Source: Schmidtea nova (taxonomy: Eukaryota). From it: a stretch of 64,000 nt of DNA. A program made the position numbers and the translations under genes. Below the pieces are notes generated by a model. That model was not told where the DNA came from, made no database searches, and saw only the letters and a list, made by a program, of their open reading frames with translations. Of the stretch, positions 30,015 through 64,000 are shown piece after piece. The stretch's first letter is position 1. The number at the start of each line of letters is the position of its first letter. The stretch spans positions 351,726,001 through 351,790,000 of the forward strand of contig CM097883.1 of assembly GCA_044892505.1 (NCBI GenBank), in the 5' to 3' direction.

Positions 30015-30830
30015 NNNNNNNNNNNNNNNNNNNNNNNNNNNNNNNNNNNNNNNNNNNNNNNNNNNNNNNNNNNNNNNNNNNNNNNNNNNNNNNNNNNNNN
30101 NNNNNNNNNNNNNNNNNNNNNNNNNNNNNNNNNNNNNNNNNNNNNNNNNNNNNNNNNNNNNNNNNNNNNNNNNNNNNNNNNNNNNNNNNNNNNNNNNNNN
30201 NNNNNNNNNNNNNNNNNNNNNNNNNNNNNNNNNNNNNNNNNNNNNNNNNNNNNNNNNNNNNNNNNNNNNNNNNNNNNNNNNNNNNNNNNNNNNNNNNNNN
30301 NNNNNNNNNNNNNNNNNNNNNNNNNNNNNNNNNNNNNNNNNNNNNNNNNNNNNNNNNNNNNNNNNNNNNNNNNNNNNNNNNNNNNNNNNNNNNNNNNNNN
30401 NNNNNNNNNNNNNNNNNNNNNNNNNNNNNNNNNNNNNNNNNNNNNNNNTAAGTAACAAAATAAGCCTTTGCTGCAAAAGGCTTTATTTTGTTACTTATTT
30501 ATTAATTAATTTAATACTTAATGCTGCNNNNNNNNNNNNNNNNNNNNNNNNNNNNNNNNNNNNNNNNNNNNNNNNNNNNNNNNNNNNNNNNNNNNNNNNN
30601 NNNNNNNNNNNNNNNNNNNNNNNNNNNNNNNNNNNNNNNNNNNNNNNNNNNNNNNNNNNNNNNNNNNNNNNNNNNNNNNNNNNNNNNNNNNNNNNNNNNN
30701 NNNNNNAACTAAATAAGCCATTGCTGCAAAAAATTTTATTAAGTGAAAATTTTGGATTAAAAAGAGATTGATGAGGATTATTTATCATAAAATTACTTTT
30801 TAATGATGTTTATAGTCATTTGTATTGCAG

Positions 30831-42258: not shown

Positions 42259-42984
42259 ATGAATCTTATAAATGGTGTCAGCAACTCCCAAGTTGACCAT
42301 GTTTCGGTCAAAATTCCAGCAATTTTTCAGAACCAGAGTCTGTGGTTCAAACAAGTGGAGGCCAGTTTCAAGATATCAAGAATTACAGAAGAAACTACAA
42401 AATATTTTTATTTAATTTCAAATCTTCCAACAACAATGCTATCAAAATACGAACATCTATTGGACTCAGAAACTGAGCTTCCGTACTCAACTCTGAAAGA
42501 AGCAATCCTAGCAGAATTTGAGCTATCAAGAAAAATATCGATAACAGAATTGATGAGAGAAGAATGCCTTGGAGATCGATCTCCACCAGAAGCACTTCAG
42601 CACATTACGGGACAAATACAAAGAATAGATACAGCCATGGATCCATTCAACAGTCCTATATCTCGGGAATTGTTCATGCGACTATTACCAAGCTTTGTTC
42701 AAGACATCCTATTATCGATGCCAACGACGGACCTTCGAAAATTAGCAGTCACAACAGACAGAATAATGTTATCAAAGCGGCAATCAGTAAAGACAGTTGA
42801 ACACGAAAATTGCAATACTCAAGAGTTAGGAGATAAGACGAGAACAATTAGGGAACTACAGGAAGAAATCAATGTAATACGTCAACAATTAAGAAATAAA
42901 AGCACAAGTAAGTTATGTTTTTATCATAGTAAACATGGACAACGTACTCCGAGAACATCAAGAACATTCCTTATCCTATATTGA
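42259..42984 (+). CDS. gag: Gypsy Gag (truncated at the C-terminal Cys/His motif)
   Basis: VSVKIPAIFQNQSLWFKQVEASF, ELFMRLLP, KLCFYHSKHG; then fused to RT sequence at the catgga junction. Confidence 0.85.
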   Translation: MNLINGVSNSQVDHVSVKIPAIFQNQSLWFKQVEASFKISRITEETTKYFYLISNLPTTMLSKYEHLLDSETELPYSTLKEAILAEFELSRKISITELMREECLGDRSPPEALQHITGQIQRIDTAMDPFNSPISRELFMRLLPSFVQDILLSMPTTDLRKLAVTTDRIMLSKRQSVKTVEHENCNTQELGDKTRTIRELQEEINVIRQQLRNKSTSKLCFYHSKHGQRTPRTSRTFLILY

Positions 42985-44526
42985 TGATGTTTTGATATTC
43001 TCCAAGACTGAAGCAGAGCATAAAGCACACGTGTCGAGTGTGATGACCAGTCTTCAAGCAGCTGGTCTCATAGTCAACCAGAGAAAATGCGAATTCCAAA
43101 CCGAAAAGGTAAATTTTTTGGGTTTCGAATTAACAAAACAGGGAATCAAACCATCGAAGGAACGCACCTTAGCAATTAGCAATTTAAAGAAGCCAACCAA
43201 TAGTCAAGATTTACGACGTTTTATTGGTGGCATCGGCTATTATCACTGGCTAATTCCAAGACTGTCAGATACACTGAGTCCACTGCATGACTTGTTACAA
43301 AAATCGGCCGATAAAAAGGAAGATCTCTTATGGCAAGACTGCCATACACAGGCCTTCATGAATGCAAATAATTCCGTACGCAAAATCAGCAACGTCTCAT
43401 ACCCTAACCCATCCAAGCCATTCCTATTATGCACTGACGCATCGTCTAAAGCAATTGGAGCAAGTCTAAGTCAAATCAACGAAGAAAATAAATCATTTCC
43501 TATTGCCTTCTTTTCCAGGAAATTAAATTTAACCGAACAGAAGTATTCTATTTTCGACAGGGAGTTATTGGCAATATTCTTATCTATAAAACATTTTAAG
43601 CATTTCTTAGACGGTTCTCATTTTACAGTCATGACGGACCACAAACCTTTACTACGAGCTAGACATATGAAAGATCCATCGCCAAGACAATGGGGAATAA
43701 TCGAATACCTTGATCAATTTGATTTCACCATCGAATTCATAAAAGGGGAAGACAATGTAGTTGCCGATCTCTTCTCCAGACAATGCAGTAATCAAGACCT
43801 ACAAGTATCAACTGTGGAGATTAATTTCGTTGAATTCACTAAAGAAAGTTTAAAAGAAGAACAAAGGAAAGATCAGACCTGATCTACACTGAAAAATGCA
43901 AGTCTCCAGTTATGCAGTACTATAGATGACATCCTCATTGACAACTCTACGGGGGAGACCAGAATAGTACTGCCAAAAATATTCCGACATCAATAATTTC
44001 TAAGAATTCATAACATATCTCATCCAGCATCCAAACCAACGATAGAATTGATCAAAGCGACATATGTGTGGCCTCAGATGAAAAGTGACATCAGAGAGTG
44101 GTGTAGACAATGTCAAAGATGTCAAGGTGCAAAGATAACAAGACACACACATGCTCCGTTAGGTACCATAGAAACCAAAGGAAGGTTTATCACAGTTTTG
44201 TTATTAGTGAACCAATATTAACCAATATCGAAGACAATTTGGCATCGATTCAAGAGGAAATCGACTCACAACTAAGTAACAAAAAAACAAGCCAACCAAA
44301 ACAACATAGTTTTGAAAGCAAACTATTTGTTAATTGCAAAAAAGTGTGGCTTCGAGCTGAATTTAGGAAGTCGTTAGAAGATCCGTACACTGGACCATAC
44401 GACGTTATAGAAAGATCCGATGACAATAAAACGTTAAAAATCAAAATTGGAGACCAAATAAAGAATGTTAGCATCGACCGTCTTAAGCCATGGATTGGAG
44501 CTGATGAATTTGCTCCGCAATCTTAA
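42935..44526 (+). pseudogene. pol: Gypsy pol remnant (RT C-half, RNase H, IN HHCC and GPY/F; PR, RT N-half and IN core deleted)
   Basis: YIDDVL, TDASSKAIG, FDRELLA, TDHKPLL, NVVADLFSR; HNISHP...CQRCQ; PYTGPYDV...VSIDRLKP. Confidence 0.88.
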
Positions 44527-45256: not shown

Positions 45257-45521
45257 ACTTTAACTCTCTAATTGAGCTCCTTACCGATATGGAGATGTAT
45301 AACTTTTTCGAGGGCGGTATCCGTGGCGGATTACCTTTTGTAAATAAACACTATGTAAAAACAGGCCCGGATACCGCATTGCTTTACAACGTAAAGCAAT
45401 GCGGTATCCGGGCCTGTTTTTACATAGTGTTTATTTACAAAAGGTAATCCGCCACGGATACCGCCCTCGAAAAAGTTATACATCTCCATATCGGTAAGGA
45501 GCTCAATTGGAGAGTTAAAGT
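45257..45521. repeat. Near-perfect 265-bp palindrome (131-bp arms, 3-nt loop) inside pPolB
   Basis: Arms 45257-45387 / 45391-45521 with one mismatch; loop aac. Confidence 0.95.
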
Positions 45522-48500
45522 TAATAATGAGGAATACCAAGATATACCTTTAATTCCTAAGAAATTTAATGGTTCTAGTCGGTTATAAACAATGACCTTA
45601 GCTCTAAATTGCTGGAAATAATCAGGTAAAAGGAAAAAATCTAGTTTTAAATAAACCATCATGTAATCAAAAATCGAAGTACATGAGGTTTCACGCCAAA
45701 TTCTCTTAACTGTCTCATATTCAGCTGGCTTCACGCCTTTCCAAATAGGAGGTAACTGGCGAATATTTTGTAAAACTTCTAAAGAAGTCGATGTGTCATA
45801 TGGAAAAAATCCCTTTGCTGTTATTATTTTACCCTGAGATTCAGATTCGATCAAAAGTAAAGACGATAAAGTTTTGACAGCATTATATAAAGACTCGCTG
45901 ATAAATTGATAAGAGTCTATGAATATAACAATTAAGGAGTCAATCCTAGCAAAAAGACTAAGGAAGTTCTCGCTTGTCAAAGGAATACAACTAATATTCC
46001 AGGAATGGTATTTGGAAAGGCCAAATTTCAGAATGTGATGTAGATCATAACCCTTTAAATTATGAAAAATGACAGGTAGGGTATGTCTAATTTGCCTTGA
46101 GATATTGCAAGCTTTGCAAGCTGCGCCAAGAAATAGACCGATAAAATGTTCATTGTCCCTAACTGGATAAACTAAAGGTTTATTGCACAAATAACATGAT
46201 GCGCTCTTTTCAAAATCTAATTTTTGAGCGTCGGTAATTATAATTTTCTTCTGATAATTTTTATAAAAAAACGGCGTCACTTATGTTTACTAATCAATTC
46301 AATTTCATTAAGAAATTGATCGACGCAATCTAAACCGAAGAAAAATTTATAAATTTTTACACCGGTAAAATCATTAATAAGAAGCAAACCAGCAGAAATA
46401 GGCAAGTGACGTTGAAAGTAACAAGCCTCAAAGTCAGCGTAAATAACAAAGGGAGGAGTGACGGTTTTCTTCCAATCAGTAAATTCGAGGTATTTGTTTT
46501 TGGACATTGTGTATAAGGTAGTACTCAGCTGATTTTTATCACAAAGACCCCTATGTCTATTAAAAGACTCATCATTCCTAAAACCGTTTAAACACCTAGG
46601 ACACCACTGGCTACAAATCCTAACAGGAGTGATTGAACTATTCCTACAATTAAGGAATCTATTTAGATCTGTGATTGCGCCATGGTGCTAATTATTCTTA
46701 TTTTCAATCAATAATTAATTTATAGGTATTCATCCTACTACCTTACTTCGGTAAATTATATCAATAAAAGCATCTTCATCAGAAATGTCTATCTGCTTTT
46801 AGTCATAAGTAAGCACATTAATACTATAACCGGGATTTTGATGTTCAAATTTACTTATATTTGACAGTTTCATCGGCATATTATTGGGGTAAAATTAAGT
46901 TGAGAAAGATCGTAGGAAGTAGGACGATTTCTATATTGCCTATTTACACTTTCATAGTTAATAATTGATAGGAAACTGTACAAGAAACAATAATGGTCAT
47001 TATTAACTACATTTATAAGAAAGCTTAAACTTTTTAATGATTTTGGGGTTTCAATAAAACTATTGCCACTTAACCGACTTATTTCGGAAAATTTAGTGAG
47101 AACGAAGCTTATGTACTCGATTTTATTGATAGTCCAATTACTACCTTTTTCATTTAATTGAAGTGTTGAGGTTCCGAGAATCTCAACTTGATGTTTCTTA
47201 AATAAATAAAAAAATAAGACTGATTCTTTTCAAAGACTATTTATTTATAACAATTACAAATTTGATAAAAATAAACAATAACCTAAAGGATAATAATTTT
47301 TAGTTATTTTGTATTTATATGTATGTGTGTAAGTGCTTGCAGTTTCCTGAGCTCGAATGTAAAGATTTTGTACGCTCGATTTTAATTTACAAATCGTTTA
47401 CCGAATTTGTAATTCTTCTTAACTGTGTAAGATTTTAATGGTGGTTTGACTGAAAAATCAGTCAGTTTATATACTAAATTTTAAGGCACTTAATCTGTCA
47501 ATAATGATTGTTATTTTGCCTCTTGAGTTGATTGAAATTATTTTGAAAATAGAGTGGTTTTCAAAACAGAATTGTTTTCAAAATTATTTTTTAACTTTGG
47601 GATATTATTTCATTTTTCTTACTTTTGTAGGTCATAAATATAATTTCTTTAAACAAACAGTAATTTATTTATTTTTAATTTATTAAAACAATCTGTATTA
47701 TTTATTTATTTTATTATTATTATTATAATTTATTGAATTAAAATATTAAAATATAAATGAAAATATAATCCATATTCAAAAAATTAATTTACATAAAATA
47801 TTTTCAAAACAAAATATTCTTTCAAAATTATATCAAATTTTGTCCATCACCATAAAAAATGTCAATAAAAGTTTACATGATCACAAATGATAAATTGTCA
47901 AAAGATAAAAAAGATTGTTATATACATCACAAAACTGAATGAATTTGTCACACAAATAGGATTTTCAAAAGATAAAATAGATTGAATAAAAAAAAGATAT
48001 AATAAATTTGTCACATAATAAAATTGTCAAGAGATAGAATAGATTGTTATTTGAATCACGAGGCTGAATGAGTTTGTGCCAAAATAGGATTGTCTAAAGA
48101 TAAAATAGATTATTGTCTGAATTCCATCTTTTCATCGGGAGGGATCTTGTTAGATGATGTGTCTATGTGTATGTTTAGCCTATATCTATTTGTTCCTATG
48201 CTATAGTCTTCATCTAACTCAAATTTATTTACAAAGAAATTTAATTTATTTAACAAAATGTCCGGCACTGAGACCGTTTTTAATTCTAAATTTGTGACAT
48301 CGAGTTTAATTATAACATAGTTGTCGTTCAAGTCCATATTAACTTCGACTAACCCATGTCCAATTTGAATATTTAATAAATTATTTATTTGGGTGTTTTC
48401 CTGATTACTGATGATGATAATTTCTTTATCATCACTGATGGTAATTATATCGTTAATAATATCTTCCTCATCACTGATGTCGATAATTTGTATTTAAGTA

Positions 48501-48778: not shown

Positions 48779-51700
48779 TTATTCGGCTCTCAACTCGAAA
48801 TCGTCGTATAATCTCGGCTTCACATTTCTATTGTGTCTTTTCGGGTATCTTCCTGTGGTCTCTTTATTCTCTTCCGTTGACGTTGCTTCGTTAACCTCTT
48901 CCAATCTCTCCGATTCCTTTGTTCTTGACCATATACTTGTTCCCCAACTGTCCGTCTCTATCTTTGCTATTTCTGATCTTTCTGGGATAATCTTAATCTG
49001 GTTAAAATTACGCTGTATTATCTTCCCATCAGCCTCGCTTCTTAATTTAAAAGTCCAATCATTTACTTTCTCCAGTATTTCATATGGGCCGCAGTATTTC
49101 TCCCCAAATCCTTGTTTCTGAACTACTTTTACTAATGCCGAATCTCCTATTTTGACGTCTTTATTCCATCTATTTCGATTGTAAATCTTTTCGTTATATA
49201 CTCTCACTTTATCAGTTCTCTTTTTTACTTCCTCTTCTATGTTCGTTAACTCTGTTCTCAGTTTTCTCATGAATTCTCCGTAGTCTTGTGGTCCTATTAT
49301 GTCGCTTGTTTCTTCTCTTACTTTTGGTGTTCTGCCGAACATTAATTCTATCGGTTTATATCCAGTACTTTTATGGACTGTGTTCCTTACTCCATATTCT
49401 ACCGTGTGTACTGTTGAATCCCATTCCTTCGTCTTCCTGTCGAACATGGTCGCTGCCATCATACTTTTTGCTGTTTGGAACATTCTTTCGATTAAGCCGT
49501 CAGATTGTGGGTAGTACGGTGATGTACAGGTTTTCTTTGTTCCTATCAGACTGCACAAACCCTTAAACATATTTGACTCAAAATTCTTTCCCTGATCTGA
49601 GTGAATCCTTTCTGGTATACCGAATTTTGTGATCCATTCTTCCCATATTGCTCTAGCCACTGCTTCTGTCGTAATTTCTGGGAGTGGTATTAGACATGGA
49701 TATTTTGTGAAGTAGTCAATTAATCCCAGAATGTATCTATTTCCTTTTCTTGTAATTGGAAAAGGTCCGGTAATGTCTATTCCCAAAATTTCTAAAGGTC
49801 TACTGCTTATAAAACTCTGTAGTGGTGCTCTAACTCTTCCGTTTATATACTTGTTGTGTTGACAGGCTATACATCGGTTTACTCTATCTATAACGTTCTC
49901 GTTGATATTTGGCCAATAGTATCTTTCTTTGGCTGCTCTCGTAGTTCTTTCAATGCCAACATGTCCCAATTCCCGATGTAACTCGTCAATATATCTATTT
50001 CTTTCTTCTTCTGGTAGTATTTTCCTATGTCCTTCTGCTTTCTTAATCTTAAGATTTCCTTCACTGACATACATAAGCTCCGCTTTTCTCCATAGTTCTA
50101 AGTTTTTCCGGTTTTGTTCTTTTCTCCCTTGCTGTATCCAATCGATTATTTGCCTAACTTCTGAATCCGTCTTCGTATTTATCTGACATATAATTCTTTC
50201 TGACTTGTTCTCTTCTGTAGAAGTGTTTTCTTCCTCGTAAACTTTTACATTTCGTTTCTTTCTTGGGTCCGCGTGTTTCAGTCGGCATTGTTCGCATGGT
50301 GTAATTCTTGACAATGCATCCGCATTGCAATGGTCTTTCCCTTTTCTAAATTCCACTTTCATGTCATATATTTCTAGCTCTGCTTTCCATACACAATATT
50401 GAGAGGTGTTTGGGCTACTCCAATCTAATAACCATTTAAGTGCTTGATGATCTGTTCTTACTGTGAACTTTTTACCTACTAAATAATACTTGTATTTTAA
50501 TACAAATGTATAAATTGCCAAAAGTTCCTTGCGTGTGATACAGTATTTCCTCTGCGTTTTCGTCATAGTCTTCGATCCATACGCAATAACTCTCTCCTTC
50601 CCATCTTGGATTTGAGACAGGACGGCCCCTATTGAATCGTTAGACGCGTCTGTGTCTAAAACGTAGTATCCATCTGTAGTTGGTAATGCTAATATTGGCG
50701 GTGATAGTAAAGCCTGTCTTAATCTCTCGAACGATCCTTGTCTTTCCTCCGTCCATTCAAATTTGTTTTCTGTTCGAAGCATTTCGTTTAAAGGTTCTGT
50801 CGTCTTAGCGTAGCCTTTAATGAAGTTTCTGTAATATCCCGTCATCCCTAAAAATGTCCTTAACTCTTTCTGACACATTGGCTTCTTATATTCTCTTATC
50901 GCTTTGGTTTTGTCTGGGTCCGTCTGTACTCCTTCTTCGTTTATAATGTGTCCCAAATATCTTACCTCGTTTTTTAGCAAGTGGCATTTCTCCGGTGATA
51001 ATTTTAGTCCCGCTTCTCTCATCTTTTGTAGTACTCTATCTAATATTTCGTTGTGCTCTTCAATTGTTTTTCCGAATACCAGAATATCGTCCAAATATAT
51101 CACACAGTTAGTCCAGTTCTCTCCTCTTAAGACTACGTTCATTATTCTTTGAAATGTTGCTTGTGCGGCACACAATCCGAATGGCATTCTTGTGAACTCG
51201 TATTGGCCAAATCTCGTGCTGAATGCTGTTTTCCTTATATCCTCTTCTGCGATTGGAATTTGATAGTATCCACTGGACATATCTAATGTGGAAAAGAATT
51301 TCGCGTTTCCGATCGTATCAAAGACTTCGTTTGCTGATGGTATTGGAAATATTGCTCTTTCTGTTTTTGCATTTAAAGCTCTGTAGTCGATGCACATTCT
51401 CATATCCCCATTCTTTTTTTTTTGTTACCACTATGGGAAAGTTCCATGGTGAATTGCTTTCTCTAATAATTCCCGCTTCTTCCAATTCTGTAATGTATCT
51501 TCTCACATCTTCCTCCAATCCCCTTGGTATCCTTCTATGTTTGAATGCTATCGGTGTTGTTTTCCCCGTTTCTATAGTGTGTTGTCCCACATTTGTCTTT
51601 CCAATATCCATTTTGTAACTACTGAATACATCTTTGTTCCGCCATAAAATTTGTGAAATCTTCTGTTTTTCTGTTATTGTTAATCTATCGTCTAGTTTGT

Positions 51701-52148
51701 TTATCAACCCTTTCACAATTTTGTCTATACTTCTCTTTTCTTTGTTTTGGTCGATTGTTGACAATTTCATCAATGTGTTATTTTTTCCCTCTTTGTCCGT
51801 CCATTCTTCCACTTCTCCCAGTGTTGTTCCTGTATGTAGACTTTTCACTCCTCCTTCCTGCATATTAATTCGGACCCAAATCAATCCCTCGGAACATGTT
51901 GCTAGTCCATCTGCTACCAGTATACCTCTTTCCTCCATCTTGTTCTTGTTTCCTGTAAATAAACAATTAGTTACGTCTTCCTTTATCCTTTCGTTCTCCT
52001 TATCTACTATCATCCCTTTGATCCAATACTCTCCCTCTCCTTTCAATGTCACATTTTCTGCTACCACTACTTTTCTCGTTTCTTCTTCCGTCCCTTTAAC
52101 TATTCTTCCCACTCCTGGACGCCTGGGAGTGGTCTTTAACAGTTTAAA
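48779..52148 (-). CDS. pol: Gypsy Pol (linker, RT, RNase H, integrase); one extra A in an A10 run at ~51414-51423 splits it
   Basis: SPWNFP, DYRALN, MPFGL, YLDD, DTDASN, TDHQAL, ADALSR, HRELGH..CIACQ, GIDITGP, HSDQGKNFES, PQSDGLIER, GPY. Confidence 0.92.
52089..52148 (-). promoter_or_regulatory. Predicted -1 ribosomal frameshift signal (U UUA AAC + H-type pseudoknot)
   Basis: Heptamer 52148-52142 is in phase with ORF1; 9-nt spacer; stem1 CCACUCC/GGAGUGG; stem2 CGUCC/GGACG; next ORF is in the -1 frame. Confidence 0.75.
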
Positions 52149-53773
52149 GACGATGGTATCGATGTCTTGGATAGAAATGGAATTTGAATACCCTTTACCT
52201 CGATACAGTCTTCTGCCGGTTTCATTATTACTCCCAGTTCTTTCATGCATCTGAGTCCGATATACGCATGTGGGAATACCCCGTTTATTATTTCGAATTT
52301 GTGTTTGGTCGTCCTTGGACCCAAACTCAGTGACAATACTAATTGTCCTCGGCTTTTTCCTTTACTTCCATCTGCGTACGCTACTCTAACGTTTGAATCC
52401 CTGACTTCTATTGTCGAATCTCGTTGTATTATTTTCTCTGCCAGTTCCTCACTAATGACATTCAGATCTGCTCCCGTATCGAATAGTGCTTTAACTTCTT
52501 CTCCTTGGATTTTGCAACAAATGATTGGCTTGTTGGTTGCCCTTTCCGATCGTCTTTGCGATATTACTGTTGTGGCTTTTTTTATATATTTTTCCTTTGG
52601 TTTGTCGCCATTACCTCCGATAAACTGTGCCCACTTCTCTTCCATTGTTAGCTTACTTTTCTTTGTCTTTTTTACTTTTTGTGTAATCGCTTTCATAATT
52701 CGTTCTGATGGGTCGTCTTCTTCGTATTCGCTATCTGAACTTGTCCCTTGTACGGATACTTCTTCTAATTGTCGTACTCTTCTATAATCGTCCCTCTTGT
52801 TTGGGCATTCTCTACTTATATGACCCTTTCTATTACAATTAAAACATGTTACCTTTTCTCGATACTCTCGGCAATTGCTCGATATATGTCCTGTTTTCTT
52901 GCATCGGAAGCATCTTTCGTTCTTCTTTTCTTCGCAGAAACGTGCAATATGACCGGTTTTGCCGCAATTGTAACATTCCACTTGTTGTCCATTGTGGAAT
53001 TCTTTTCTACTTCTATCTTGGTTATTCGGTTCTTTTAAACTTTTTATAATTTCCTGAAGTCTCTTAATCTCTTCTCTTAATTCTTGTAACTCCAATGTGG
53101 CATTTTTATCTACCCGCATTTGCCTAGCATTGTTGTTTCCTTTCGCTTTATTAATTCCTTTCCCGTCTCTCCATGCATTATAGCTCTCTTCTCGTAGTTG
53201 TGATAATCTGTATTCTGGAATTATTTCTTTCTGGTCATCTTCTTCCTTTATTAGTTCGACAGCTTCTTCTATGGTTTTGGGCCGCAATATTTTCAATGTC
53301 TTTCTCATGATTTCACTTTTTAAACCTTCTCTAAAGATCATTAATTCTATTCTGTTTCGATCTTCTTTTGTGTCTTTCGTCGTTCTTTTTACCCGTCTAC
53401 TGAAATCTACTATCGTCTCTCCTTCGTCCTGTTTGGTCGATAGAAAAATTCTAACCTTCTTGGCTCTTGACTCCTTTATTGGGAACATTTCTGTTAATGT
53501 TTTTGTGTACCACTCTACTGAGTTGTTTTCTTCTCCATACGTACTTTTTGATTCCACCTCGAATAAGATTTCTGGATCAAAATATCTTCTTAATAATCGG
53601 ACTTTGTAAGCCTCTTCCATCTCAAACATCGCCAAAAAGGATGTTATATTCTCGAGATGTGTCCTCACATCCCTTTTACACTTCCTTGTGTATAGATATA
53701 GGGATCCCTCTATCTCTTGTGCCAATAAATTTTTGACAAAAGAATTGTCAAACGTAACTGCTCGTGACGCCAT
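52136..53773 (-). CDS. gag: Gypsy Gag-protease polyprotein (3 CCHC knuckles, aspartic protease)
   Basis: CYNCGKTGHIARFC, CFRCKKTGHISSNC, CFNCNRKGHISREC; ALFDTGADLNVI; 545-aa open frame. Confidence 0.92.
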   Translation of the reverse strand: MASRAVTFDNSFVKNLLAQEIEGSLYLYTRKCKRDVRTHLENITSFLAMFEMEEAYKVRLLRRYFDPEILFEVESKSTYGEENNSVEWYTKTLTEMFPIKESRAKKVRIFLSTKQDEGETIVDFSRRVKRTTKDTKEDRNRIELMIFREGLKSEIMRKTLKILRPKTIEEAVELIKEEDDQKEIIPEYRLSQLREESYNAWRDGKGINKAKGNNNARQMRVDKNATLELQELREEIKRLQEIIKSLKEPNNQDRSRKEFHNGQQVECYNCGKTGHIARFCEEKKNERCFRCKKTGHISSNCREYREKVTCFNCNRKGHISRECPNKRDDYRRVRQLEEVSVQGTSSDSEYEEDDPSERIMKAITQKVKKTKKSKLTMEEKWAQFIGGNGDKPKEKYIKKATTVISQRRSERATNKPIICCKIQGEEVKALFDTGADLNVISEELAEKIIQRDSTIEVRDSNVRVAYADGSKGKSRGQLVLSLSLGPRTTKHKFEIINGVFPHAYIGLRCMKELGVIMKPAEDCIEVKGIQIPFLSKTSIPSSLNC

Positions 53774-54929
53774 GTTATATCTCTAAATGAATTAACTAAT
53801 TTATATAAATAAATTACCACGATTCGGAAAAAATAATTCTAATAATAAATCAATAAATTACAATATTCAAAAATCTCTATTTTACAACACAATATTCAAA
53901 CAATATTCTAATAATTATAATATTAAACGAATTTGTAATATTATTAATTCACATATAACAAGAGACATTATTATTTAAGGATTCATTATTAATTTTATTG
54001 TTATTATTTAAGGATACATTATTTATTTGATTGTTTTCAACAAAATTATTGTGTTCAGTATTGTTGATGTAATTTGGATATAAACTATTAAATAGTGATT
54101 TTTTAAAGGTTTATATTGGGTCAGATGGGTCTTGTGGCTATAAAAAATTCGTTATAAGCTATATTTTTATTAATTTTACAAGTAGGGCAGAGGAGGTGAG
54201 TGACACAATTTTATTTATAGGAATAGTAGTTTTCCATAATGACATGGCAGTCATTAAGTAAACTACTATTACAAAAAAATTTTATATATCGAGCCTGAAT
54301 AAATTAAATAATTTAATAAACAAATACATGATATAATAAAATAAATATATATCATTTTAAAATAATTAAATTTATCTTCATAAAATATGACAAATAATTT
54401 TTGAATCACAATTTACATAATAATAATAAATGTTCATAAAGATTTCCATTATAATTTATTAATAAAGATTTTCCTAAAACTTTTCATAATAAATATACCA
54501 TTTATAATTCGCAATAAAGAATTTGATAAAATTATTCGTTATAAATATTCATAAAATCATTCGGTATAAATATTCCTAAAATTTTCCATGTTAATCTATT
54601 CTCAAAGTAATTTCGTCATAAAACTTTTATTAATAATACATATTCCTAAAAGTTTACATAAAACCATAAAAAGAAATAGGTTATCAACATAATCTTTATC
54701 ATATATTTACAACATAGATTTTTTCGTCATAAAATAATATATTTTCATTAAAATATTTTCTTAAATTATTTTCATCATAGAATATATTTTTAATAACTAA
54801 AATACTTTCCTCGCAATATTAGTTATAAAAATAATATTTTTTAATATCCATAAACCTTTTATGAACTGTTTATCTTTAACATAATATGTAATGGTTCAAC
54901 AAACAATTACTTATTAGTATATTCGGAAA

Positions 54930-56090
54930 GTAACAAATCAATTTATTGTGCTCCTTGTCGATTGTTAGGAGGTGGTGGATAGGCCCTGGCAACAACAGGT
55001 TATTCTGATTAGAAAAATGTAACAGAATGTTTATCTCAGCACGAAAATACATCACAACACAGACAGTTAGAAACAGTTCTAAAGCAGCGATTATTAGGAG
55101 ACTCTGCGTCAAATGTGAATGAACTATTAAATTCAGAAACTCTAAAGGAAAAAAATACCATCTTGTACCTGTGTTAACATAGCGCCAACTGCGACGTCGG
55201 ACGCATCTGTGGTTAGACTTAAGGGCAGAGAATACTTTGGATAAGCCAAAGTCTGAATTGATTCAAGTGCTTTTTTAGCTTCGATGAACGCAGCGTCAGA
55301 TTTCTCTGTCTAATTTATAATAGATCGCTTTGATCCCGAATGAGCGAAGTCAAAGGAGCAAGAATATCAGATATCCTAAGTATGAACCTGTGGCAATAAT
55401 TGACTACGCCTATAAAGCTGCGAAGCTGCGTGACAGTTTTTTGTTTTAGAAAAATTTCTGATGGAATTTAAACTTTCAGTTTGTGGATCTATTCCATCAG
55501 CGGATAAGGTGTGTCCCAGAAATTTTACACTTGATTGAAAGAATTGACATTTGGAACGATTTATCTTGAGTTGATGTCGCTCTAAGATTTTAACGAGTTT
55601 ATGTGTTTCGGCATCAAGCGATGCGACTAGGATGTCGTCGACGTAGGCTGCTACATAATCTAGTCCGGATAATATGTGATCGATGTGTCGCTGGAATGTT
55701 TGTGCAGCGTTCCGCAAACCAAAAGGAATTCGCAGGATTTTGAAGAGACCTATAGAAGTGATGACAACTGTTTTTGCACATCGGATAGAGTGACAGGAAT
55801 TAAGTGGTATGTCTTCGCCAGATCGATTGTAGAGAATATTTCGTTACCTATGAATCTGGCTAACGAATCCTTTATAAGAGGCGTTGTATATGATTCGTGG
55901 TGTGTGGTGGTATTTAAACGACGGTAGTCGCCACATATCTTGAAAGAACCGTCTTTCTTAGGGACGAAATGGATCGGAGAGGCCCAATGCGAAGAAGATC
56001 TTTGGATCACTTCTACTTGTAATATTCTGTTTTCAGAAATGTCAATTTTTCTCCGGAGATCGGGCGCAATCTCTCTCTGAGAGGTGGTGA
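54930..56090 (-). mobile_element. Decayed Gypsy RT/RNase H remnant
   Basis: WASPIHFVPKKDG...CGDYRRLN, FGLRNAAQTFQR, YVDDIL, TTDASDVAVGA. Confidence 0.88.
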
Positions 56091-56397
56091 ATTCAGAGTA
56101 AGGATTTGATGATAGAATAAAATAAATTTAACAACAAGAAAAGTATATTTTTTAAACTTCAGTATATTTTAAACAAACGTATTTTTCTCAACAGTTTTTA
56201 ATAAACTATTTCTCTAAAAGTTTTATTTTCTTTTCTTCTTTATTTATATAACGAAATATAATACAACTAATATAATATAAATATTACATTTAGTAATATA
56301 TAAATTGTATCACCACAATACATTTTGGGCAAAGGTAATCTTGTCCTTCATACTATTCCAATCGATCATAAATACCAGCCCAGAATGGTAAATCTGT

Positions 56398-56667
56398 TTA
56401 AATATAACACTTTGGTTTAAAAATATTACTGACATTCATTATACATAATTCTTTAATAATTGTTCCTCCAATTTTATTATAACCGTAAATTGATTTACAA
56501 AATTGATCTTGAATAATTCCATGTTCATCATCCGCACCCCTATACCAATAAATTTTATTAAACTTTGACTTGAATAATTTTGACTGTAGCAATTTACAAA
56601 CAAATAATGTTTTTTCATTCCCGCTAGGGCCAACAATTTGAAACCTTGCATCATTTCTTAATTCCAT
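56398..56667 (-). pseudogene. Polinton A32-like packaging ATPase N-terminal remnant
   Basis: MELRNDARFQIVGPSGNEKTLFVCKLL...KIYWYRG; degenerate Walker A (GPSGSGKT-like); truncated. Confidence 0.72.
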
Positions 56668-56758
56668 ATTTCTATTTTTATTAATTTATTAATATTGTTT
56701 ATATTTGTTTTAAATAATAATTTTCATTACCATTATCCTATTTAAAAAATTCCCATTA

Positions 56759-57184
56759 ATGATTAGCAACATAAATTATAAGGGTAAGACTGATGCATCT
56801 CACATGAATTTTCCAAAGGGCAAACCTCATCAAATCATTGATAGAAGTGGGAAATATCCGATAATATATTTTAAGGCCGCGAGATTTAGAATTGTGGGAT
56901 GTAAGCAATTTATTAGCGATGAAAAAGTAAAGATTTATGGTTTAACAATTCAATCGATTACTGTAACGGCAAACTTGGGATTTGATTGTAAATTAAATGA
57001 TTTGGCTAAATTAATAGAATGTGTTTACTAACCAGAATTATTTCGAGTTTTGAGATATATAAAATATAACCCCATGTGTGTAAATATATTTTCAAGTGGT
57101 AAAGTAGTTATATTAGTTTTAAAAAATAGGTACTATTTAAATATAGCTGATAATATTATTAATGATGTAAAATTAATTATTTAA
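56759..57184 (+). pseudogene. Divergent TATA-binding-protein (TBP)-like gene, one premature stop
   Basis: Reading through TAA at 57029: IQSITVTANLG...Y*PELFRVLRYIKYNPMCVNIFSSGKVVIL (cf. TBP YEPELFPGLIYRM..P..VLLIFVSGKVVL); weaker first repeat YPIIYFKAARFRIVGCK. Confidence 0.72.
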
Positions 57185-57410: not shown

Positions 57411-58701
57411 TCAACTTAAGTGAAATATAGTAGTTTTTAATTTATTATTTTTCATTATAATAATATCTATTTTTAAGATAAATTGATGTCCGTAGTTCAC
57501 TAGACTGTTCCACCGTGTCTTTGTATCTAAAATTAAAACCTTATCTTCCTGTTGACAGCTTTCTCTAATATACATTTGCAAAATACTGTCATTCTTTGTT
57601 GGCGAATTTCTAAAGATTTTAACGATTTTGCGTATTTTAGTCCGAATAGGTTTAGCAGCGTTACATATGTCTAAGTCTAACCCATTAGGGATTCCTTCAT
57701 CCAAATCACTTTCAGCAGTATCGTTAAGTTCCAATTCATCTTCGCTTCCAAGATTATTTGAGTCCGATCTATATGCTTCTATTTCATCGTTTTGAGTATT
57801 CTTGGGTACTCTTTGGTTTGAGTATTTATTTTTTTATAAAGTATATCTATTACTGCTAATTGTATGTCATGAGCAAAACATAGCTTTTGGTAGTTGGATA
57901 CTAATGAACCTACCTTCAACATCACTCTAGCACCATCCGTAGTCATGCAAACGATGTTTTTTTCTAAATTAATATTGAAATCCTGGAGTTTAGTTTTTAC
58001 TATTATGTTACATTTTTCCGCAGGCATGCTTCCATGAATCCTTACCATCCCTAAACTACAATATTTCGTTTCAGTTATCTTAGGTTCAACAGCGTAATGA
58101 ATATTAATATTAATGTAACGACGGTTTCGTTTTGAAGTCCACTCATCAAATGTAATGCTTACTCCTCCTACTTGTAGTATGGATTTAAGTTCCTTAATCA
58201 AGTTATATTTTATTTTCTCGTAATAACCAACTACAATACTGCGTATTGTGTGAGGTGACTTAGGAATATTTTCGAAACCTCTTGCTGTGAGGGATTTTCT
58301 TAGATCATATGATGAGCAAAATATTCTAAAAGGAAGTCCATCTACTGATGTCAAACGCGCAAGAACAGCAGGTATTGTGTTGTCAATTTTAATCTTTGCC
58401 GTTAGATATGATGTAATTTTCCTTTTGGTATCGCTAATATCTACTCTTTTTAACTGATTTTCCTCGTCTGTTTGTTGATCTAAAATTAATGTTCTCTTCT
58501 GACAATCAATTTTATGTATTTTATTCAAGTGCGTATATGCAGTCCTTTGGTAGACCCCCCAGCTATTTTTAGTATACTCGGACACAACTTACATCTAGCG
58601 GTTTTAGGAGTACTTCCTTGTTCTCGCAAAAAATGTTTCTAAATCGCGGATTCGCTTTCTTATTCCCACTCAATGTATTTTGTAGCTGATTTCGATGCCA
58701 T
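57411..58701 (-). pseudogene. hAT-family transposase pseudogene (BED finger + catalytic region, C-terminus lost)
   Basis: AI*KHFLRE...ARCKLC...HLNKIH; ITFDEWTS; TTDGARVM; CFAHDIQLAV; TRWNS. Confidence 0.88.
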
Positions 58702-59010
58702 TATAGATCTGCAAAAATTGATTTAATTTAAAATAAAATAATAATAGTTTCTTTCATAATATAAAATGTGCGTTTTTTAAGTTTTTATAAATAAATATAT
58801 GACTTACAATTTCAGTTTACATTAATTAATGTTTTATTATTTTACATTATTAAAACAAAGAAACACCCATAATATTCTTTTTTATTAATTTAAATGATTT
58901 TTTGTATTAATAATAAAATGGATATATTTGAAATTTACGTTATTATATATACTATTCTATATACCTACGTTAATAAAGTAAAAAATTAATGATTATTTTA
59001 TTAATATATA

Positions 59011-59718
59011 TGTTGGGGTTAGTATAAAAATCACAAAAGTAACAAGAAATATCAAAATTAATTAAAATGCAAAAATTAATTAAAATTTATCAAAAATGTA
59101 AAATTAATATTCACTGGGGGAAATGGGTATGGTTGAATACCAAATCAAAAGACGAACCCAAAAATAATAATAGAAATTTAATAAGGGGTCCCTAGAAAAT
59201 GTTATTTAATAAAAACAAACTAATGAAAATTAATTAATCGCTCAGTGGGAAACCCGAGACAATGGGAAGCCCGAGGCAATGGGAAACCCGAGCGATGAGG
59301 GAAGCCCGAGCGCAAAGAGACCCGAGAGATCAAAGTCGGGGCAATTAGGAAAAATCCATCCGAGGATATCGATTAAACCTAATTGTTATTTGCGAGAACT
59401 ATAAAAGGCAGCGCAAAACAGATGACGGGGCCGACGAGTTGATAGTTAAAAAAGAGAGCATTAAAAAGATTTGAAAACAAATAAGGAAAGATCCTGAAGA
59501 AATCAAACAGACAAAGTGAGAAAGTATCCTTTTAACTAAAGAGTCAAATCCGAATCCAGCAGAAAGCGTAATTGACCAAAAGCGTGTATTACAAAGATTG
59601 TAATTTGTGTTGATCGTGAATAAAAAGATTGTTCTGTGTTGGGTTCATTGATTTCGATAATTAAAGAGCACGAGGAGTCAGGTCAGTAAACCGATCTAAC
59701 CAGAAAAATAAGCCAACA
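59011..59718 (+). mobile_element. 5' LTR (708 bp) of a large Gypsy-like element continuing beyond the window
   Basis: tgttgg...ccaaca termini, followed by a PBS and gag. Confidence 0.85.
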
Positions 59719-59721
59719 TTT

Positions 59722-59739
59722 TGGTGAGCCCGACGTGAT
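59722..59739 (+). promoter_or_regulatory. Primer-binding site (tRNA-Trp type)
   Basis: TGGTGAGCCCGACGTGAT; 17/18 match to the recalled complement of metazoan tRNA-Trp 3' end (TGGTGACCCCGACGTGAT). Confidence 0.8.
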
Positions 59740-60307
59740 AGAAAGGTCGGTGAAAAATTGTTACGATAATAACCGACGTGATCGTAAGGTCGGTGAGAGC
59801 ATAGTGAAAATATTGAATAATTGGAAAATTGTTACGAGATTACCCGACGTGATAGAAAGGTCGGTGAAAAATTGTTACGATAATAACCGACGTGATCTAA
59901 AGGTCGGTGAAGGAGTGAATCAAAGAAAAGAAGAGATAATTTGCTATAGAAAATTGAATTTGATAAGTAAAGAAAACGATATTAAGTGACTTAATTGAAA
60001 AGTCAGTGAGAAAAGTGTTGAAAAGTAAAATTGAATAATTGTAAAAAGAGAAAATAAAATTTGAAAAGTAAAGAAAACGAGATTAATTGTTGAAGAAAAT
60101 AAAAGTGAAAATAATTGTATCAGTTGAAATAAAAGAGTAAAAAGCTTGAACAGAAAAGAGAGAATCGATAAAAATCCAATTGCCAATAATCAAGTCAAAA
60201 TTAAAACAAAAGGTAAATTTAAAAATTGTAATACTTTAAAATTTAGACGAGAAAAAGTTGTACAAAAGAAATCTTATAATCTTCGAAATAAGAAACAAGT
60301 GGAAAAT

Positions 60308-62446
60308 ATGGCTAGTAATTCAAATAATAATGATCAAATACCCATGTCTACTACTCCCACAAACAATGGTAGTGATTTTGCAAGCTGTCAGAAATTGCCA
60401 GTAGAGCAATACGGAGGAGACCCAATTGATTTTGTTGATTTCATGGCAGATTACTATATGTACGCGACAGCATACGGATGGAGCCAATCAATTATGGTAC
60501 AAAGGTTACCGGTATATTTGAAAGGTGCAGCACGAGAAGCTTGGCAACAGATCGACAAAAGACTTATCGCAAATGATTGGACAAAGCTAAAAGATGCATT
60601 GGCAGCCAAGTTAATTGGTGGCGATATCAAAAGAATAATGCGCCAAAAATTTTACAACCGAGTACAAAAGTCAAATGAATCGGTAAGTGAGTTTGCTTAT
60701 CATTTAACAACTCTTGCAGAAAAAGCCTTTGAAGCGAAACCAGAACAACCTGATGTGACGAAACAAGTGAAAGAATTACTTCAAGATCAATTTCTGTCAG
60801 GAGTAAAAAGAGAGATCAAAAAAGCCCTGTGTTATGTAGATTTCAACAATTTCGATGAATTGATTAAAAAGGCCATGAAGATTGAATTGAATCTCAAAAC
60901 CACACAACAGACAGCCGAATCCTTTGCAATTGTAAATGAAACGAGAGATGAATCAGTAACTCCAGTTAGAGAGACTCTTTTGCAAAAATCAACAAGTCCA
61001 TCACCAAAGTTTAGAGTGAAATTCGAGCCAAGAAAGTCGTCAAACAGCCCAAATGAAGAAAGAGAAAGGCCAATTCAATGTAGTTATTGTAAAAGATTGG
61101 GACATCAAGTAAATCAATGTTGGTTTAAAAACAGCGCTCGAAGAAGCCCAAGTCCTGTTCAGTGTGATAATTGCCAACGAAAAGGGCACAGTAATAGTCA
61201 ATGTTGGTTTAAAAATAATTCGCAACGGAGTCCAAGAAAGATGTGGCCAGATTGGTTGAAAGACAATGTCGAGAAAACCTTCAAGAGAAGGGGCAACATT
61301 GATCAAAGAGCTAGTGATAATATGCAGTGCTATAATTGTGGAAGGAAAGGCCATACTTCACGAAATTGCTTTGCAAGATCGAGATCTCCGTCAACATCAC
61401 CATCACCACAGAGAGATAGAGTAAATCTCCAAGGACAAATTCAATGCCACTCATGCAGAGGAAATGGACACATGGCTAGATCATGCCCAAAGAATAATGA
61501 AAAATTTCAAAGACCTATATTAAAGAAAATCAGATTTCAAAATGATAAATCAAAATTTGATAATGTGGCTTTTGTACAACCCGATGATGCTAACGAAAGA
61601 ATTGAAAAAGAGATAAAGCAAATGGGTAAACGATTGGATAAATTAATGTGTAAATTTGAATCGGACGAAGAAACTGATAACCATATGATGTATGAAACGC
61701 AATCAGAAGGGTCAGAGACAGATATAATGAAGGAAGTAGTAAATGATGAATTAGAAACCGAAAAAATAAAAATGATTTTGTCGAGAACAAAAATTTTAAT
61801 GGAGTCAAAAGTAAAAGAGACGTCAAAAATAATGACAATGCTAAAGAAATTGAGTCAAATGCCGATGAGTATACAAAATTTAAAAAGTGTAATTGAAATT
61901 TGTGCTGAATATCACAATGAGAATTCAAAAGATAAAACTGAAACTGAGAAAATAATGAAAATATTTGGAAAATTGTTCAGAGAGAAAACATGGTTAGATT
62001 TTATTGTTATTGATGTTGTTGATGAAAGTAATAATGATGTGATGTGCATTCGTTGTGAAATAGGAGAGTGCGTAAAGGAATTTAAAAAGAGATTAGAGGA
62101 AAATAGTGGAAAATGGATAAAGGAAGTAAAATTTAAAAATAGATGTTTAAATGACGAGGAAATATTAATAGATTGTGGTATTACACCTGAAAATAAAAAC
62201 AGAGTACAGATAGTATTTATGATTAGAAATAATGAAATAATAAAAGATTATTCACAGAAAATTTGTAGGGAATTAAAAGATATTTTGTGTAAAGGGGATG
62301 CAAATGAAATTATTAGAAAATTAAAATTGATAGAAGAAATTGAAATTGAGAGAGATATTAAATTAGATATTATAGATGCAATAAGGCCACACATGTATGA
62401 AAAATCTAAATATAAAGAAAATTTAAGAAATTTAGTACGACGATAA
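60308..62446 (+). CDS. gag: Retrotransposon Gag with 4 CCHC knuckles and a C-terminal extension containing a ubiquitin-like domain
   Basis: YGGDPIDF..F...Y...ATAYGW...LPVYLKGAAREAW; QKSNESVSEFAYHL; four CX2CX4HX4C; open from 60146, first ATG at 60308. Confidence 0.88.
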   Translation: MASNSNNNDQIPMSTTPTNNGSDFASCQKLPVEQYGGDPIDFVDFMADYYMYATAYGWSQSIMVQRLPVYLKGAAREAWQQIDKRLIANDWTKLKDALAAKLIGGDIKRIMRQKFYNRVQKSNESVSEFAYHLTTLAEKAFEAKPEQPDVTKQVKELLQDQFLSGVKREIKKALCYVDFNNFDELIKKAMKIELNLKTTQQTAESFAIVNETRDESVTPVRETLLQKSTSPSPKFRVKFEPRKSSNSPNEERERPIQCSYCKRLGHQVNQCWFKNSARRSPSPVQCDNCQRKGHSNSQCWFKNNSQRSPRKMWPDWLKDNVEKTFKRRGNIDQRASDNMQCYNCGRKGHTSRNCFARSRSPSTSPSPQRDRVNLQGQIQCHSCRGNGHMARSCPKNNEKFQRPILKKIRFQNDKSKFDNVAFVQPDDANERIEKEIKQMGKRLDKLMCKFESDEETDNHMMYETQSEGSETDIMKEVVNDELETEKIKMILSRTKILMESKVKETSKIMTMLKKLSQMPMSIQNLKSVIEICAEYHNENSKDKTETEKIMKIFGKLFREKTWLDFIVIDVVDESNNDVMCIRCEIGECVKEFKKRLEENSGKWIKEVKFKNRCLNDEEILIDCGITPENKNRVQIVFMIRNNEIIKDYSQKICRELKDILCKGDANEIIRKLKLIEEIEIERDIKLDIIDAIRPHMYEKSKYKENLRNLVRR

Positions 62447-64000
62447 GCAAAGAACTTAGAAAGACTACAATTGAATTGAATCCGTTTACAATAGCATTAG
62501 ATTACGAAGATTATGGTAAAACTGAATATATAGTAGAGCATTGGTGCACAAAAGTTCGGAAATTAAGAAAAAGAGCTGCTGAAAGAATAGGAAAAGATGG
62601 AATTATTATATTTATGTTTAAAAGAGAAAAATTAGATGATGATGAATATTTATTTGATTTTGGATTTGTTCCACAAGAGTTAGATGAAAATGGATATTTA
62701 CGTTTCGATAGTAGAAATGGATATTTGATAAATTGTGTATCGGTGATTAAGGAACAGAAATTTGAATTAATAGACAAATCTGATGGATCAAATACAGACA
62801 GAGAAAATGATGATGAAAATGAGGTTAAAGAAGATAAAGAGATAAACGAAATGGTAAATGATAACGAGGAAACCAAGCAGAATAATAAAGATGAGTATAA
62901 AGTAACAAAAATAGAGGAATTTGAGGAACTTAAAGGCGAAATGAATAATGAAAGTAATATTAAGAAGCCTAGAACCTTATATGAAATAAAGAAAGGTTTA
63001 GTGCGATTGGAACAAGAAGTAGATAAAACCAAAGCATTATTAAAAAGCTTGACTAAAGCAGTATACCCAATGTGTGAAATTGAGATAGATGGAAAATATG
63101 AATTGGGAGGAATAGTAAATGAAGTGAGAAACAGACTCCCTAGCATCATGCGAAGGTTTGGTAAAAATGAAAAATTTTGTGACAAAGATGTAATCGAGAA
63201 ATTAACTAAAAATGGAATTACTACAGAAGTAACATTAATGAGCTTAACTTATGTAATTTTAGAAATTGGTGCTCATAAGATCATGAAATCAGATGAGTTA
63301 GAAAATTTAATAGATACTGCTGCTCGAAATATAAACGAATACTTAATGAGCTGGGTTAAAAAGATTGGAGGTTGGGACAAGTTGATGAAAATGTTTATAA
63401 TAAATGAAAACGAAAGTAATGAAGAAAGTTTACCTCAACAATCGCTAAATGTCAGAGTTAGTCCAGAAAAGAGGAAGACAATACTGTTTCCTTGGGCAAT
63501 CTTTATGATAATTATTTTGTGTGCTGGAATCACACAGGTAACGAGTATGACAACGTATGACTGTTCAAAAACAGAAATGGGGAAAATTTATTCAGTTGTA
63601 GATATGTCAGAGTGTTCAGACGCATATCCAAGAAAATTAAAGATAGAAAATGATGTGAAATATCATGTATATCAAGAATCTGATTTACGACGAACAACGG
63701 TAAGAGAATGTATAGTTAAGCGCACTTCCTTTATATTTTATTGTGGCAAGTGGAGCCATACTTCAATGATAAAAATGTATACAATCCTACGGCCAGTAGA
63801 GGTAATGCCGGAAAATTGCCTCGCTGCTTTTCAAACAGGAGAATTAAAAATAAATTCGGAAATTAAATTAAAAGCAAAGCGAAATCATAGAATTAGAGAA
63901 ACAGTGGTCGTAAAAGGAGTAATGAAACAAGATGGAGATTGTGAAGGAGAACCATACAAAGTAGATGGGAAGATAATCAAACAGTCTGTAGTAATAGAGG
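62416..64000 (+). CDS. ORF2 (runs off the window; absent from the ORF track): Ubl - acidic/coiled-coil - Bcl-2-like - hydrophobic signal/anchor - chuvirus-like glycoprotein
   Basis: Manual translation is stop-free from 62416 to 64000, in the -1 frame relative to gag; WVKKIGGWDKL; FPWAIFMIIILCAGI; YDCS...ECIVKRTSFIFYCGKWSHTS...CLAAFQTGEL...GDCEGEPY. Confidence 0.85.

Follow-up and report, generated by a model that had tools for sequence, protein, structure and literature searches.

A decayed copy of a probable gB-type Ty3/gypsy errantivirus with ubiquitin-like and Bcl-2-like modules in Schmidtea nova

Structure, class and copy number of the element

The window analysed here is a stretch of 64,000 nucleotides from Schmidtea nova (contig CM097883.1, positions 351,726,001 to 351,790,000). 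It contains only the 5' third of an LTR retroelement, and the remainder was read from the downstream sequence. The 5' LTR (59011–59718, forward strand, as for all features given with window coordinates below) is 708 bp long, has the form TGT...ACA and is paired with a partner LTR 16.3 kb downstream (G000:C2:351800625-351801330), which is preceded by a purine tract (PPT). The total length of this copy is 16,320 bp, of which 14.9 kb lie between the LTRs. A 4-bp target site duplication (TSD; TATA, 59007–59010) precedes the 5' LTR and is repeated after the 3' LTR. The 4-bp duplication is exact in three of the four other copies that could be scored and has one mismatch in the remaining copy.

The primer binding site (PBS, 59722–59739) is an exact 18-nucleotide complement of the 3' end plus CCA of the host tRNA-Trp(CCA). 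For this comparison, the tRNA-Trp genes of the host were located by pattern search. The PBS core is present four times in the leader (span 59730–59912; starts at 59730, 59773, 59844 and 59887), each time followed by a short complementary arm. One might guess that these repeats act as a packaging or priming signal.

Downstream of the window, protease (PR), reverse transcriptase (RT), RNase H (RH), integrase (IN) and the 3' LTR were all found; apart from RH, the first-pass annotation had named them as targets for an extension past position 64,000. The Pol order is PR-RT-RH-IN, with YIDD as the RT motif. The nearest solved RT is that of Ty3 (E = 3e-69; next entry 8.6e-40). A TG...CA LTR pair, TSD, PBS, PPT, a Gag capsid with CCHC motifs and the Ty3-like RT are all present, and on these sequence characters the element is assigned to Ty3/gypsy (Metaviridae) and not to BEL/Pao. 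Membership in BEL/Pao was rejected because Pol is not of that type, the RT being nearest to Ty3 and no BEL/Pao-type Pfam family scoring above cut-off. By the same RT comparison, the backbone differs from that of the BEL/Pao elements which the first-pass annotation cited as having captured such glycoproteins.

All 40 DNA matches that were scored, of 900 candidates, are 99–100% identical. LTR divergence is 0.13–0.52% in the copies for which both LTRs were found (4 of 10 examined) and 1.7% in the window copy (12 mismatches in 704 aligned bases). The family is young, recently expanded and highly repeated. Four sequencing runs, all from one study and none of them RNA, were listed for the sequence.

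Gag, the frame junction and the polyprotein

The Gag frame (60128–62446) matches the Pfam families Retrotrans_gag (E = 3.6e-7) and zf-CCHC (E = 1.4e-9). The capsid domain, together with four zinc knuckles of the CCHC type, occupies 60308–61500, counted from the ATG that is the first in frame close to the conserved part; the capsid part is 79–85% identical to that of sister families. With the paired LTRs and the exact PBS, this bears out the initial description of the 5' region as LTR, tRNA-Trp PBS and Gag. A second frame is open for 528 codons from 62416 to the window end; it is the ORF of more than 525 codons reported at first pass and carries the motifs quoted from 63547 onwards.

The two frames overlap in a −1 relation, and two slippery-type heptamers lie in phase at the overlap, as would be expected if a programmed −1 ribosomal frameshift near 62,420 joined Gag to the env-pol frame. 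However, the junction is in one frame in 35 of 41 scorable distinct copies (32 without any stop), while the other six carry indels of varied kinds. The two nearest sister families are likewise in a single frame across the Gag junction, and the downstream RNA structure is not stable (−0 to −6 kcal/mol). Programmed frameshifting, which we consider very improbable, was rejected for the family because most copies and the sister families are single-framed. The frame change at the gag/'ORF2' junction, which falls within helical module B (62240–62460; break at ~62,400–62,450), is damage of the window copy. Both window frames are thus as first seen, but the two-frame layout is not typical of the family.

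Decay of the window copy extends further: Env, RNase H, IN, the exonuclease and the second membrane protein (see below) all contain stops or frame breaks, as does the stretch that follows PR. Among 20 copies, three are unbroken across the 9 kb examined, and a frame of 3,442 codons is present in 10 of the 150 matches listed. Sister families have frames of 3,393–3,401 codons with identical module order, so that the search for intact copies of the same layout, proposed with the first description, returned both unbroken copies and relatives. The modules follow each other as Gag, zinc knuckles, two helical plus ubiquitin-like (Ubl) units, a Bcl-2-like domain, signal/anchor, glycoprotein, anchor and PR-RT-RH-IN. 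The proposal that Env is linked to Gag translation together with Ubl and Bcl-2-like modules therefore holds in the form of one polyprotein in most copies.

Envelope glycoprotein, cargo and downstream proteins

Hydropathy analysis revealed hydrophobic segment 1 at 63481–63546, where the match to Pfam PF24664 (Monjiviricetes_fusion) begins; it is likely to be an internal Env signal and at the same time the anchor of the upstream part. The N-terminal part of a chuvirus/gB-type glycoprotein follows (63547–64000) and continues beyond the window. Its identification at first pass is supported by PF24664 scores far above the cut-off of 27 bits: 78 bits (E = 3.8e-22) for the window part and 198 bits for the remainder, with nearly the whole profile length covered. 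The ectodomain comprises 546 residues with 14 Cys and two sequons, and no furin-type site was found in it. Judged by the Pfam match and by published relatives, Env is probably a class III fusogen. The order Gag, Env, Pol confirms its predicted position upstream of PR/RT.

Chuvirus glycoproteins are known both from endogenous viral elements and from BEL/Pao elements of mosquitoes (PMC13524379), and the glycoprotein could accordingly be a separate chuvirus-derived insertion or one captured by a BEL/Pao element. Against the first, Env is present in all copies examined and shares the reading frame of Gag and Pol in many of them and in at least four families, as expected of a part of the element; against the second, the RT is Ty3-like and no BEL/Pao-type Pfam family scores above cut-off. 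Either origin is extremely improbable.

Another alternative is that the element is intracellular only, with Env and cargo kept for roles within the cell such as membrane anchoring of assembly. A single polyprotein needs an open Env for the synthesis of Pol, which suffices to keep the frame, and the lack of a furin-type site in the ectodomain would fit. Yet Env is conserved well beyond the needs of a spacer (80–84% identity versus 41–45% in the neighbouring linker), its dN is 0.10–0.12 against a dS near 3, and class III fusogens as a rule do not require a furin cut. We regard a purely intracellular element as unlikely, though it retains some weight. Compared with two sister families, dN is lower than dS in every tested domain, which points to purifying selection on the cargo; the ratios are rough because dS is near saturation.

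The cargo starts with helical module A and Ubl1 (61750–62230), recognized through profile similarity to Ubl2 (96.4%, E = 1.2e-9), with the duplication of the module at 96.5%; on its own, Ubl1 has a poor predicted fold. Ubl2 (62470–62760) is a predicted ubiquitin/SUMO-like beta-grasp domain without a C-terminal diglycine, as indicated by Foldseek (TM 0.8 to SUMO1, ISG15 and ubiquitin) and VIA-align (Z 11–12, rmsd 1.5–2.1). A TFIIS-N-like identity of the helical modules was discarded, since neither Pfam nor comparison with solved structures supported it (best E = 0.23). The Bcl-2-like domain (63040–63400), in which the BH1 region has drifted and BH2 is retained, was detected by profile comparison with solved Bcl-2/Bcl-xL (E = 3e-7) and by tblastn hits on two of the genome's highest-ranking Bcl-2 loci (E = 2e-4 and 4e-3). 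In one sister family this domain exceeds the Pfam cut-off; in the window copy, both Ubl and Bcl-2-like modules score below theirs (Bcl-2 E = 0.088). An anti-apoptotic function is uncertain because of the drifted BH1 motif and a pLDDT below 50 in the predicted model. Within the segments scanned, Pfam, which remote homologues could escape, gave no match to MATH, BIR, ankyrin or dUTPase-like cargo, nor to a dUTPase between PR and RT. The cargo region had no hit to longer database proteins at E = 0.001 among 3,588 candidates, which is weak evidence.

After the integrase, the same frame encodes a second type I membrane protein, weakly FN3-like and with a PDZ-type tail, although this tail is not universal as a fourth family has a different ending. 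It matched no Pfam family, its model was too poor (pLDDT 36) and Foldseek gave no match at E = 0.001. The weak FN3 leads are ESM Atlas rows at 0.78–0.80 and neogenin FN3 (E = 0.37); repeats 2 and 3 of the protein align with each other (HHalign 40%). A separate gene downstream encodes a predicted DEDDh-type exonuclease, nearest to ISG20L2.

Relation to known elements and proposed life cycle

The comparisons in this section refer to the accessible parts of the cited papers. The arrangement had been proposed as novel, but it is already published for Burro and for flatworm errantiviruses. Burro elements of planarians with the order Gag-Ubl-BCL2-env-Pol were described in 2019 (Arkhipova and Yushenova, PMC6431247), and GAG-ENV-POL errantiviruses are known in flatworms, nematodes and bryozoans (Chary and Hayashi, eLife 2026, PMC13524379); such arrangements are not monophyletic (PMC13524379). 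Since a layout in which a gB-type env, together with Ubl and Bcl-2 cargo, separates gag from pol is already in print, our contribution is another family, an exact PBS and primer assignment and the correction that no programmed frameshift is involved.

The HSV/gB-type Smed_errantivirus_1 to 6 of Schmidtea mediterranea (PMC13524379) have the same Ty3/gypsy Pol and gag-env-pol order and are multi-copy. Elements 1–4 span 14.5–14.9 kb, compared with 14.9 kb between the LTRs here. Env of Smed_errantivirus_1 is identical to the present Env at 203 of 251 residues (~81%; counted by eye from the supplement), and the ~19% difference makes this a distinct family. The table of PMC13524379 gives no PBS or LTRs for these elements, whereas the present element has both, and word searches did not find 'ubiquitin', 'accessory', 'polyprotein' or 'frameshift' in its main text. 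Nematode non-canonical GAG-ENV-POL metaviruses (Sacco et al. 2022, via PMC13524379) are alike in gene order and glycoprotein type but come from another host clade. In Burro/GYPSM1, as here, Ubl and BCL2-like domains precede an env that is in frame within one polyprotein (PMC6431247). However, Burro is larger, at more than 30 kb and with ~4,900–5,100 residues in its polyprotein, compared with 16.3 kb and 3,440 codons here, and its MATH, BIR, ankyrin, Smc and dUTPase-like motifs were not detected in the segments of the present element scanned with Pfam. Conversely, the present element has two Ubls, the post-integrase membrane protein and the exonuclease, the latter two not being mentioned for Burro in the accessible text of PMC6431247; we found no literature on either in planarian elements among the sources accessible. 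Bdelloid rotifer LTR elements also carry a 3'–5' exonuclease downstream of pol (ORF3; Rodriguez et al. 2017, PMC5408684), but that enzyme is DEDDy-type, whereas the one here is DEDDh-type and occurs with env.

Of the features expected of a GAG-ENV-POL gB-type errantivirus, the element has a gB-type env, gag-env-pol order and uninterrupted frames in multiple near-identical copies, the last found at family level, with the window copy broken. We consider it highly probable (about 90%) that this is a decayed copy of a Ty3/gypsy GAG-ENV-POL errantivirus of the gB type that has expanded recently. Its unbroken copies encode, in a single frame of ~3,440 codons, Gag, two Ubls and a Bcl-2-like domain, then the glycoprotein, then PR-RT-RH-IN and finally the second membrane protein.

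Ty3/gypsy elements are transcribed from the LTR into full-length RNA, reverse-transcribed from a tRNA primer and inserted by integrase with a 4-bp duplication. The present element would follow this cycle with tRNA-Trp as primer. Hydropathy analysis indicates four hydrophobic segments in the polyprotein, which may thread it through the ER membrane. Gag-Ubl-Bcl-2 would then be cytosolic, Env luminal, PR-RT-RH-IN cytosolic and the second ectodomain luminal, followed by a short cytosolic tail. Signal peptidase could cut on the luminal and the element protease on the cytosolic side, and hydrophobic segment 1 might double as tail anchor of the Bcl-2-like part. Such threading would bring the capsid, the enzymes and the fusogen together at a single membrane, with no need for splicing or frameshifting. 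Env would likely serve spread from cell to cell, with stem or germ cells as targets; the Bcl-2-like domain would likely keep the producing cell alive, and the exonuclease would likely trim element RNA or DNA seen by host defences.

A bolder and doubtful extension is a polyprotein in the style of flaviviruses that passes the membrane four times and supplies two surface proteins; the element would spread between cells in enveloped particles, on which attachment and fusion would be the work of separate proteins. The class III fusogen before Pol would be complemented, after the integrase, by a captured FN3-like protein that has a PDZ-binding tail and serves attachment or targeting to junctions, accompanied by the ISG20-like nuclease, the duplicated helical plus Ubl module and a membrane-anchored Bcl-2 mimic. 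We know of no errantivirus described as spreading in this way; if true, the pairing of the fusogen with a protein devoted to attachment would be a design new to Metaviridae. The broader significance lies in what the exonuclease and the second membrane protein, which is conserved, do, and in whether elements that are very abundant and young give rise to infectious particles in an animal whose pluripotent stem cells persist throughout life.

Organization of the element

The window was located at G000:C2:351726001–351790000 (G000:C2 is the contig handle). The first-pass annotation had proposed an LTR retroelement with a tRNA-Trp primer binding site (PBS), Gag, a second ORF of more than 525 codons, and a chuvirus-type fusion glycoprotein preceding any protease or reverse transcriptase (RT). 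All these parts were recovered on the + strand: the 5′ LTR seen in the sequence (59011–59718), a PBS (59722–59739) exactly complementary to the host tRNA-Trp(CCA) genes at their 3′ end, a Gag frame (60128–62446; Pfam Retrotrans_gag, E 3.6e-7; zinc knuckles, E 1.4e-9), and a second, 528-codon frame that starts at 62416 and runs off the window end. The end of this frame matches PF24664 (Monjiviricetes_fusion; E 3.8e-22, 78 bits for the part within the window, cut-off 27). In the neighbouring stretches, the remainder of this glycoprotein (Env) scores 198 bits and reaches position 634 of the 653-position profile. Env is followed, in this order, by an aspartic protease (PR), RT, RNase H (RH), integrase zinc finger and integrase core (IN), which confirms the proposed placement. 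Among solved structures, the RT is closest to Ty3 (E 3e-69), the runner-up reaching 8.6e-40. The element ends in a second LTR and has a total length of 16,320 bp; the two LTRs differ by 12 mismatches in 704 aligned bases, a purine tract lies upstream of the 3′ LTR, and TATA flanks both ends. Long TTA microsatellite tracts (L001:9420–9800 and L002:1620–1760, in the stretches beyond the window end) lie in a 2-kb non-coding stretch between an exonuclease gene and the 3′ LTR.

The window copy is dead: Env, RNase H, IN and both downstream genes are interrupted by stops or frame breaks, as is the stretch that follows PR. All 40 DNA matches scored, from 900 candidates, are 99–100% identical, and the Bcl-2-like stretch has 2,083 candidate matches in the genome (both candidates, not copy numbers). 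The genome likely contains hundreds of family copies. LTR pairs are 0.13–0.52% apart in the four of ten other copies in which both LTRs were located.

On G000:C3, from ~128,022,000, the host genes for tRNA-Trp(CCA) are arrayed in tandem and repeat every ~282 bp (stretches L112–L115, among the matches listed); the element family uses this tRNA as its primer. All 1,984 matches to the T-loop/3′-end tRNA pattern fall on the + strand, and ~1,065 additional PBS-pattern matches lie elsewhere (3,049 minus 1,984). The literature searched contained nothing on a tandem tRNA-Trp(CCA) array in planarians.

The window also contains two paralogous single-exon frames of ~290 codons each (15437–16309 and 30816–31691, +), seven-transmembrane receptor-like by eye. 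Three further gypsy-type elements or fragments lie at 42244–43882 (+), 48779–53782 (−) and 55376–56127 (−), with Pfam RT support at 55379–55843 only. By eye, we also noted a Polinton-like DNA polymerase fragment (45435–46280, −), an ATPase-like and a TBP-like fragment (56398–57160; for the latter, PF00352 E 8e-4, under cut-off) and a decayed hAT-like transposase (57411–58588, −; DUF659 E 8e-5, under cut-off).

Reading frame across the gag/env junction

The Gag frame and the second frame overlap at 62416–62446 in a manner resembling a −1 frameshift site, and the junction was therefore compared across copies. These had been selected for similarity either to Env DNA or to the Bcl-2-like protein, independently of the junction; 49 loci, less three duplicates and five without anchor, left 41 scorable copies. 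Both sides of the junction are in one frame in 35 of the 41 (32 of them stop-free), while the other six carry indels of differing kinds. Over the 9 kb retrieved, three of 20 copies have no break, and a 3,442-codon frame holds 10 of the 150 matches listed. Sister families have frames of 3,393–3,401 codons with identical domain order. A programmed −1 frameshift is thus rejected for the family. Because of the single frame in most copies and the long frames in copies and sister families, the break seen in the window reflects damage to that copy, and the family encodes a single polyprotein. The earlier proposal that Env is tied to Gag translation is thereby upheld.

Domains flanking Env and Pol

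Two ubiquitin-like domains (Ubls) and a Bcl-2-like domain lie between capsid and Env. The Ubl 2 model is a beta-grasp fold matching SUMO1, ISG15 and ubiquitin (TM ~0.8; Z 11–12; rmsd 1.5–2.1). Ubl 1 gave a poor fold prediction, yet has a profile match to Ubl 2 at 96.4%, and the helical-plus-Ubl module appears to be duplicated (profile match 96.5%). Neither Ubl ends in diglycine, so that they likely act as scaffold domains rather than conjugated modifiers. The Bcl-2-like domain of the window copy is under the Pfam cut-off, has a drifted BH1 motif and yielded a structure model of low confidence; a profile built from element sequences alone matches Bcl-2 and Bcl-xL across BH1–BH2 (E 3e-7). In a more distant family (L089, L090), the domain is above the Pfam cut-off. 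That family has the order knuckle, one Ubl, Bcl-2-like domain, Env, in frames of ~3,060–3,080 codons (among the Bcl-2 matches). In comparison with two sister families, every domain tested gave a dN lower than dS (with dS near saturation), and Env is conserved nearly as well as RT.

A second type I membrane protein follows integrase in frame with Pol (L001:6260–7459, ~6 kb past the window). It consists of signal, beta-rich ectodomain of ~330 aa, anchor and tail, with nine sequons within the last 420 aa. At its terminus the tail carries what we take to be a class I PDZ-type motif; three families share it, as do 15 of the 20 copies with the tail located, whereas a fourth family ends differently. 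A family-match search found no match for this protein; three remote homologues were found among 1.84 billion proteins, two with a similar terminal motif, and a possible FN3-like nature is a weak lead. A separate exonuclease gene of ~480 codons, broken in the window copy, follows the polyprotein (L001:7778–9250) and is present in all three close families. Its domain is of DEDDh type, nearest to ISG20L2 (E 6e-6); the N-terminal part has no assignment. In the literature searched, no description of either protein was found for planarian elements; Grohme 2018, the Burro1 function paper, the figures of PMC13524379 and Repbase may cover them.

Four hydrophobic segments suggest that the polyprotein would span the ER membrane four times. 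Judged from sequence alone, Gag–Ubl–Bcl-2 and PR–RT–RH–IN would be cytosolic, Env and the second ectodomain luminal, and cleavage would be by signal peptidase and the element's own protease. Replication is expected to follow Ty3/gypsy rules. The Env ectodomain (546 aa, 14 cysteines, two sequons) contains no furin-type site. Env would likely serve cell-to-cell spread, the Bcl-2-like domain would likely be anti-apoptotic, and the nuclease would likely contribute to evasion of host defence. The sequencing runs listed included no RNA run, which does not bear on expression either way.

Relation to known elements

The novelty suggested by the first-pass annotation did not hold. The report on the planarian element Burro (Arkhipova and Yushenova 2019; PMC6431247) describes a single frame with Gag, Ubi/SUMO-like, BCL2-like, env and then Pol, the env matching mononegavirus fusion glycoproteins, and its authors call it the first case of in-frame env between gag and pol. 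Our element works alike but falls short of Burro's size (16.3 kb against over 30 kb). GAG-ENV-POL elements with HSV/gB-type env are reported from Nematoda, Bryozoa and Platyhelminthes, six of them listed for Schmidtea mediterranea (Chary and Hayashi 2026; PMC13524379). Our element agrees with these errantiviruses in the features compared, and its Env is identical to Smed_errantivirus_1 at 203 of the 251 residues given there (81%, counted by eye). This similarity, together with cargo resembling that of Burro, points to a planarian as the likely host. Exonuclease genes are known from rotifer LTR elements (PMC5408684). The element is thus another family of an already known layout, seen in a broken copy; what keeps it of interest is its second membrane protein, its exonuclease and the possible formation of infectious particles.
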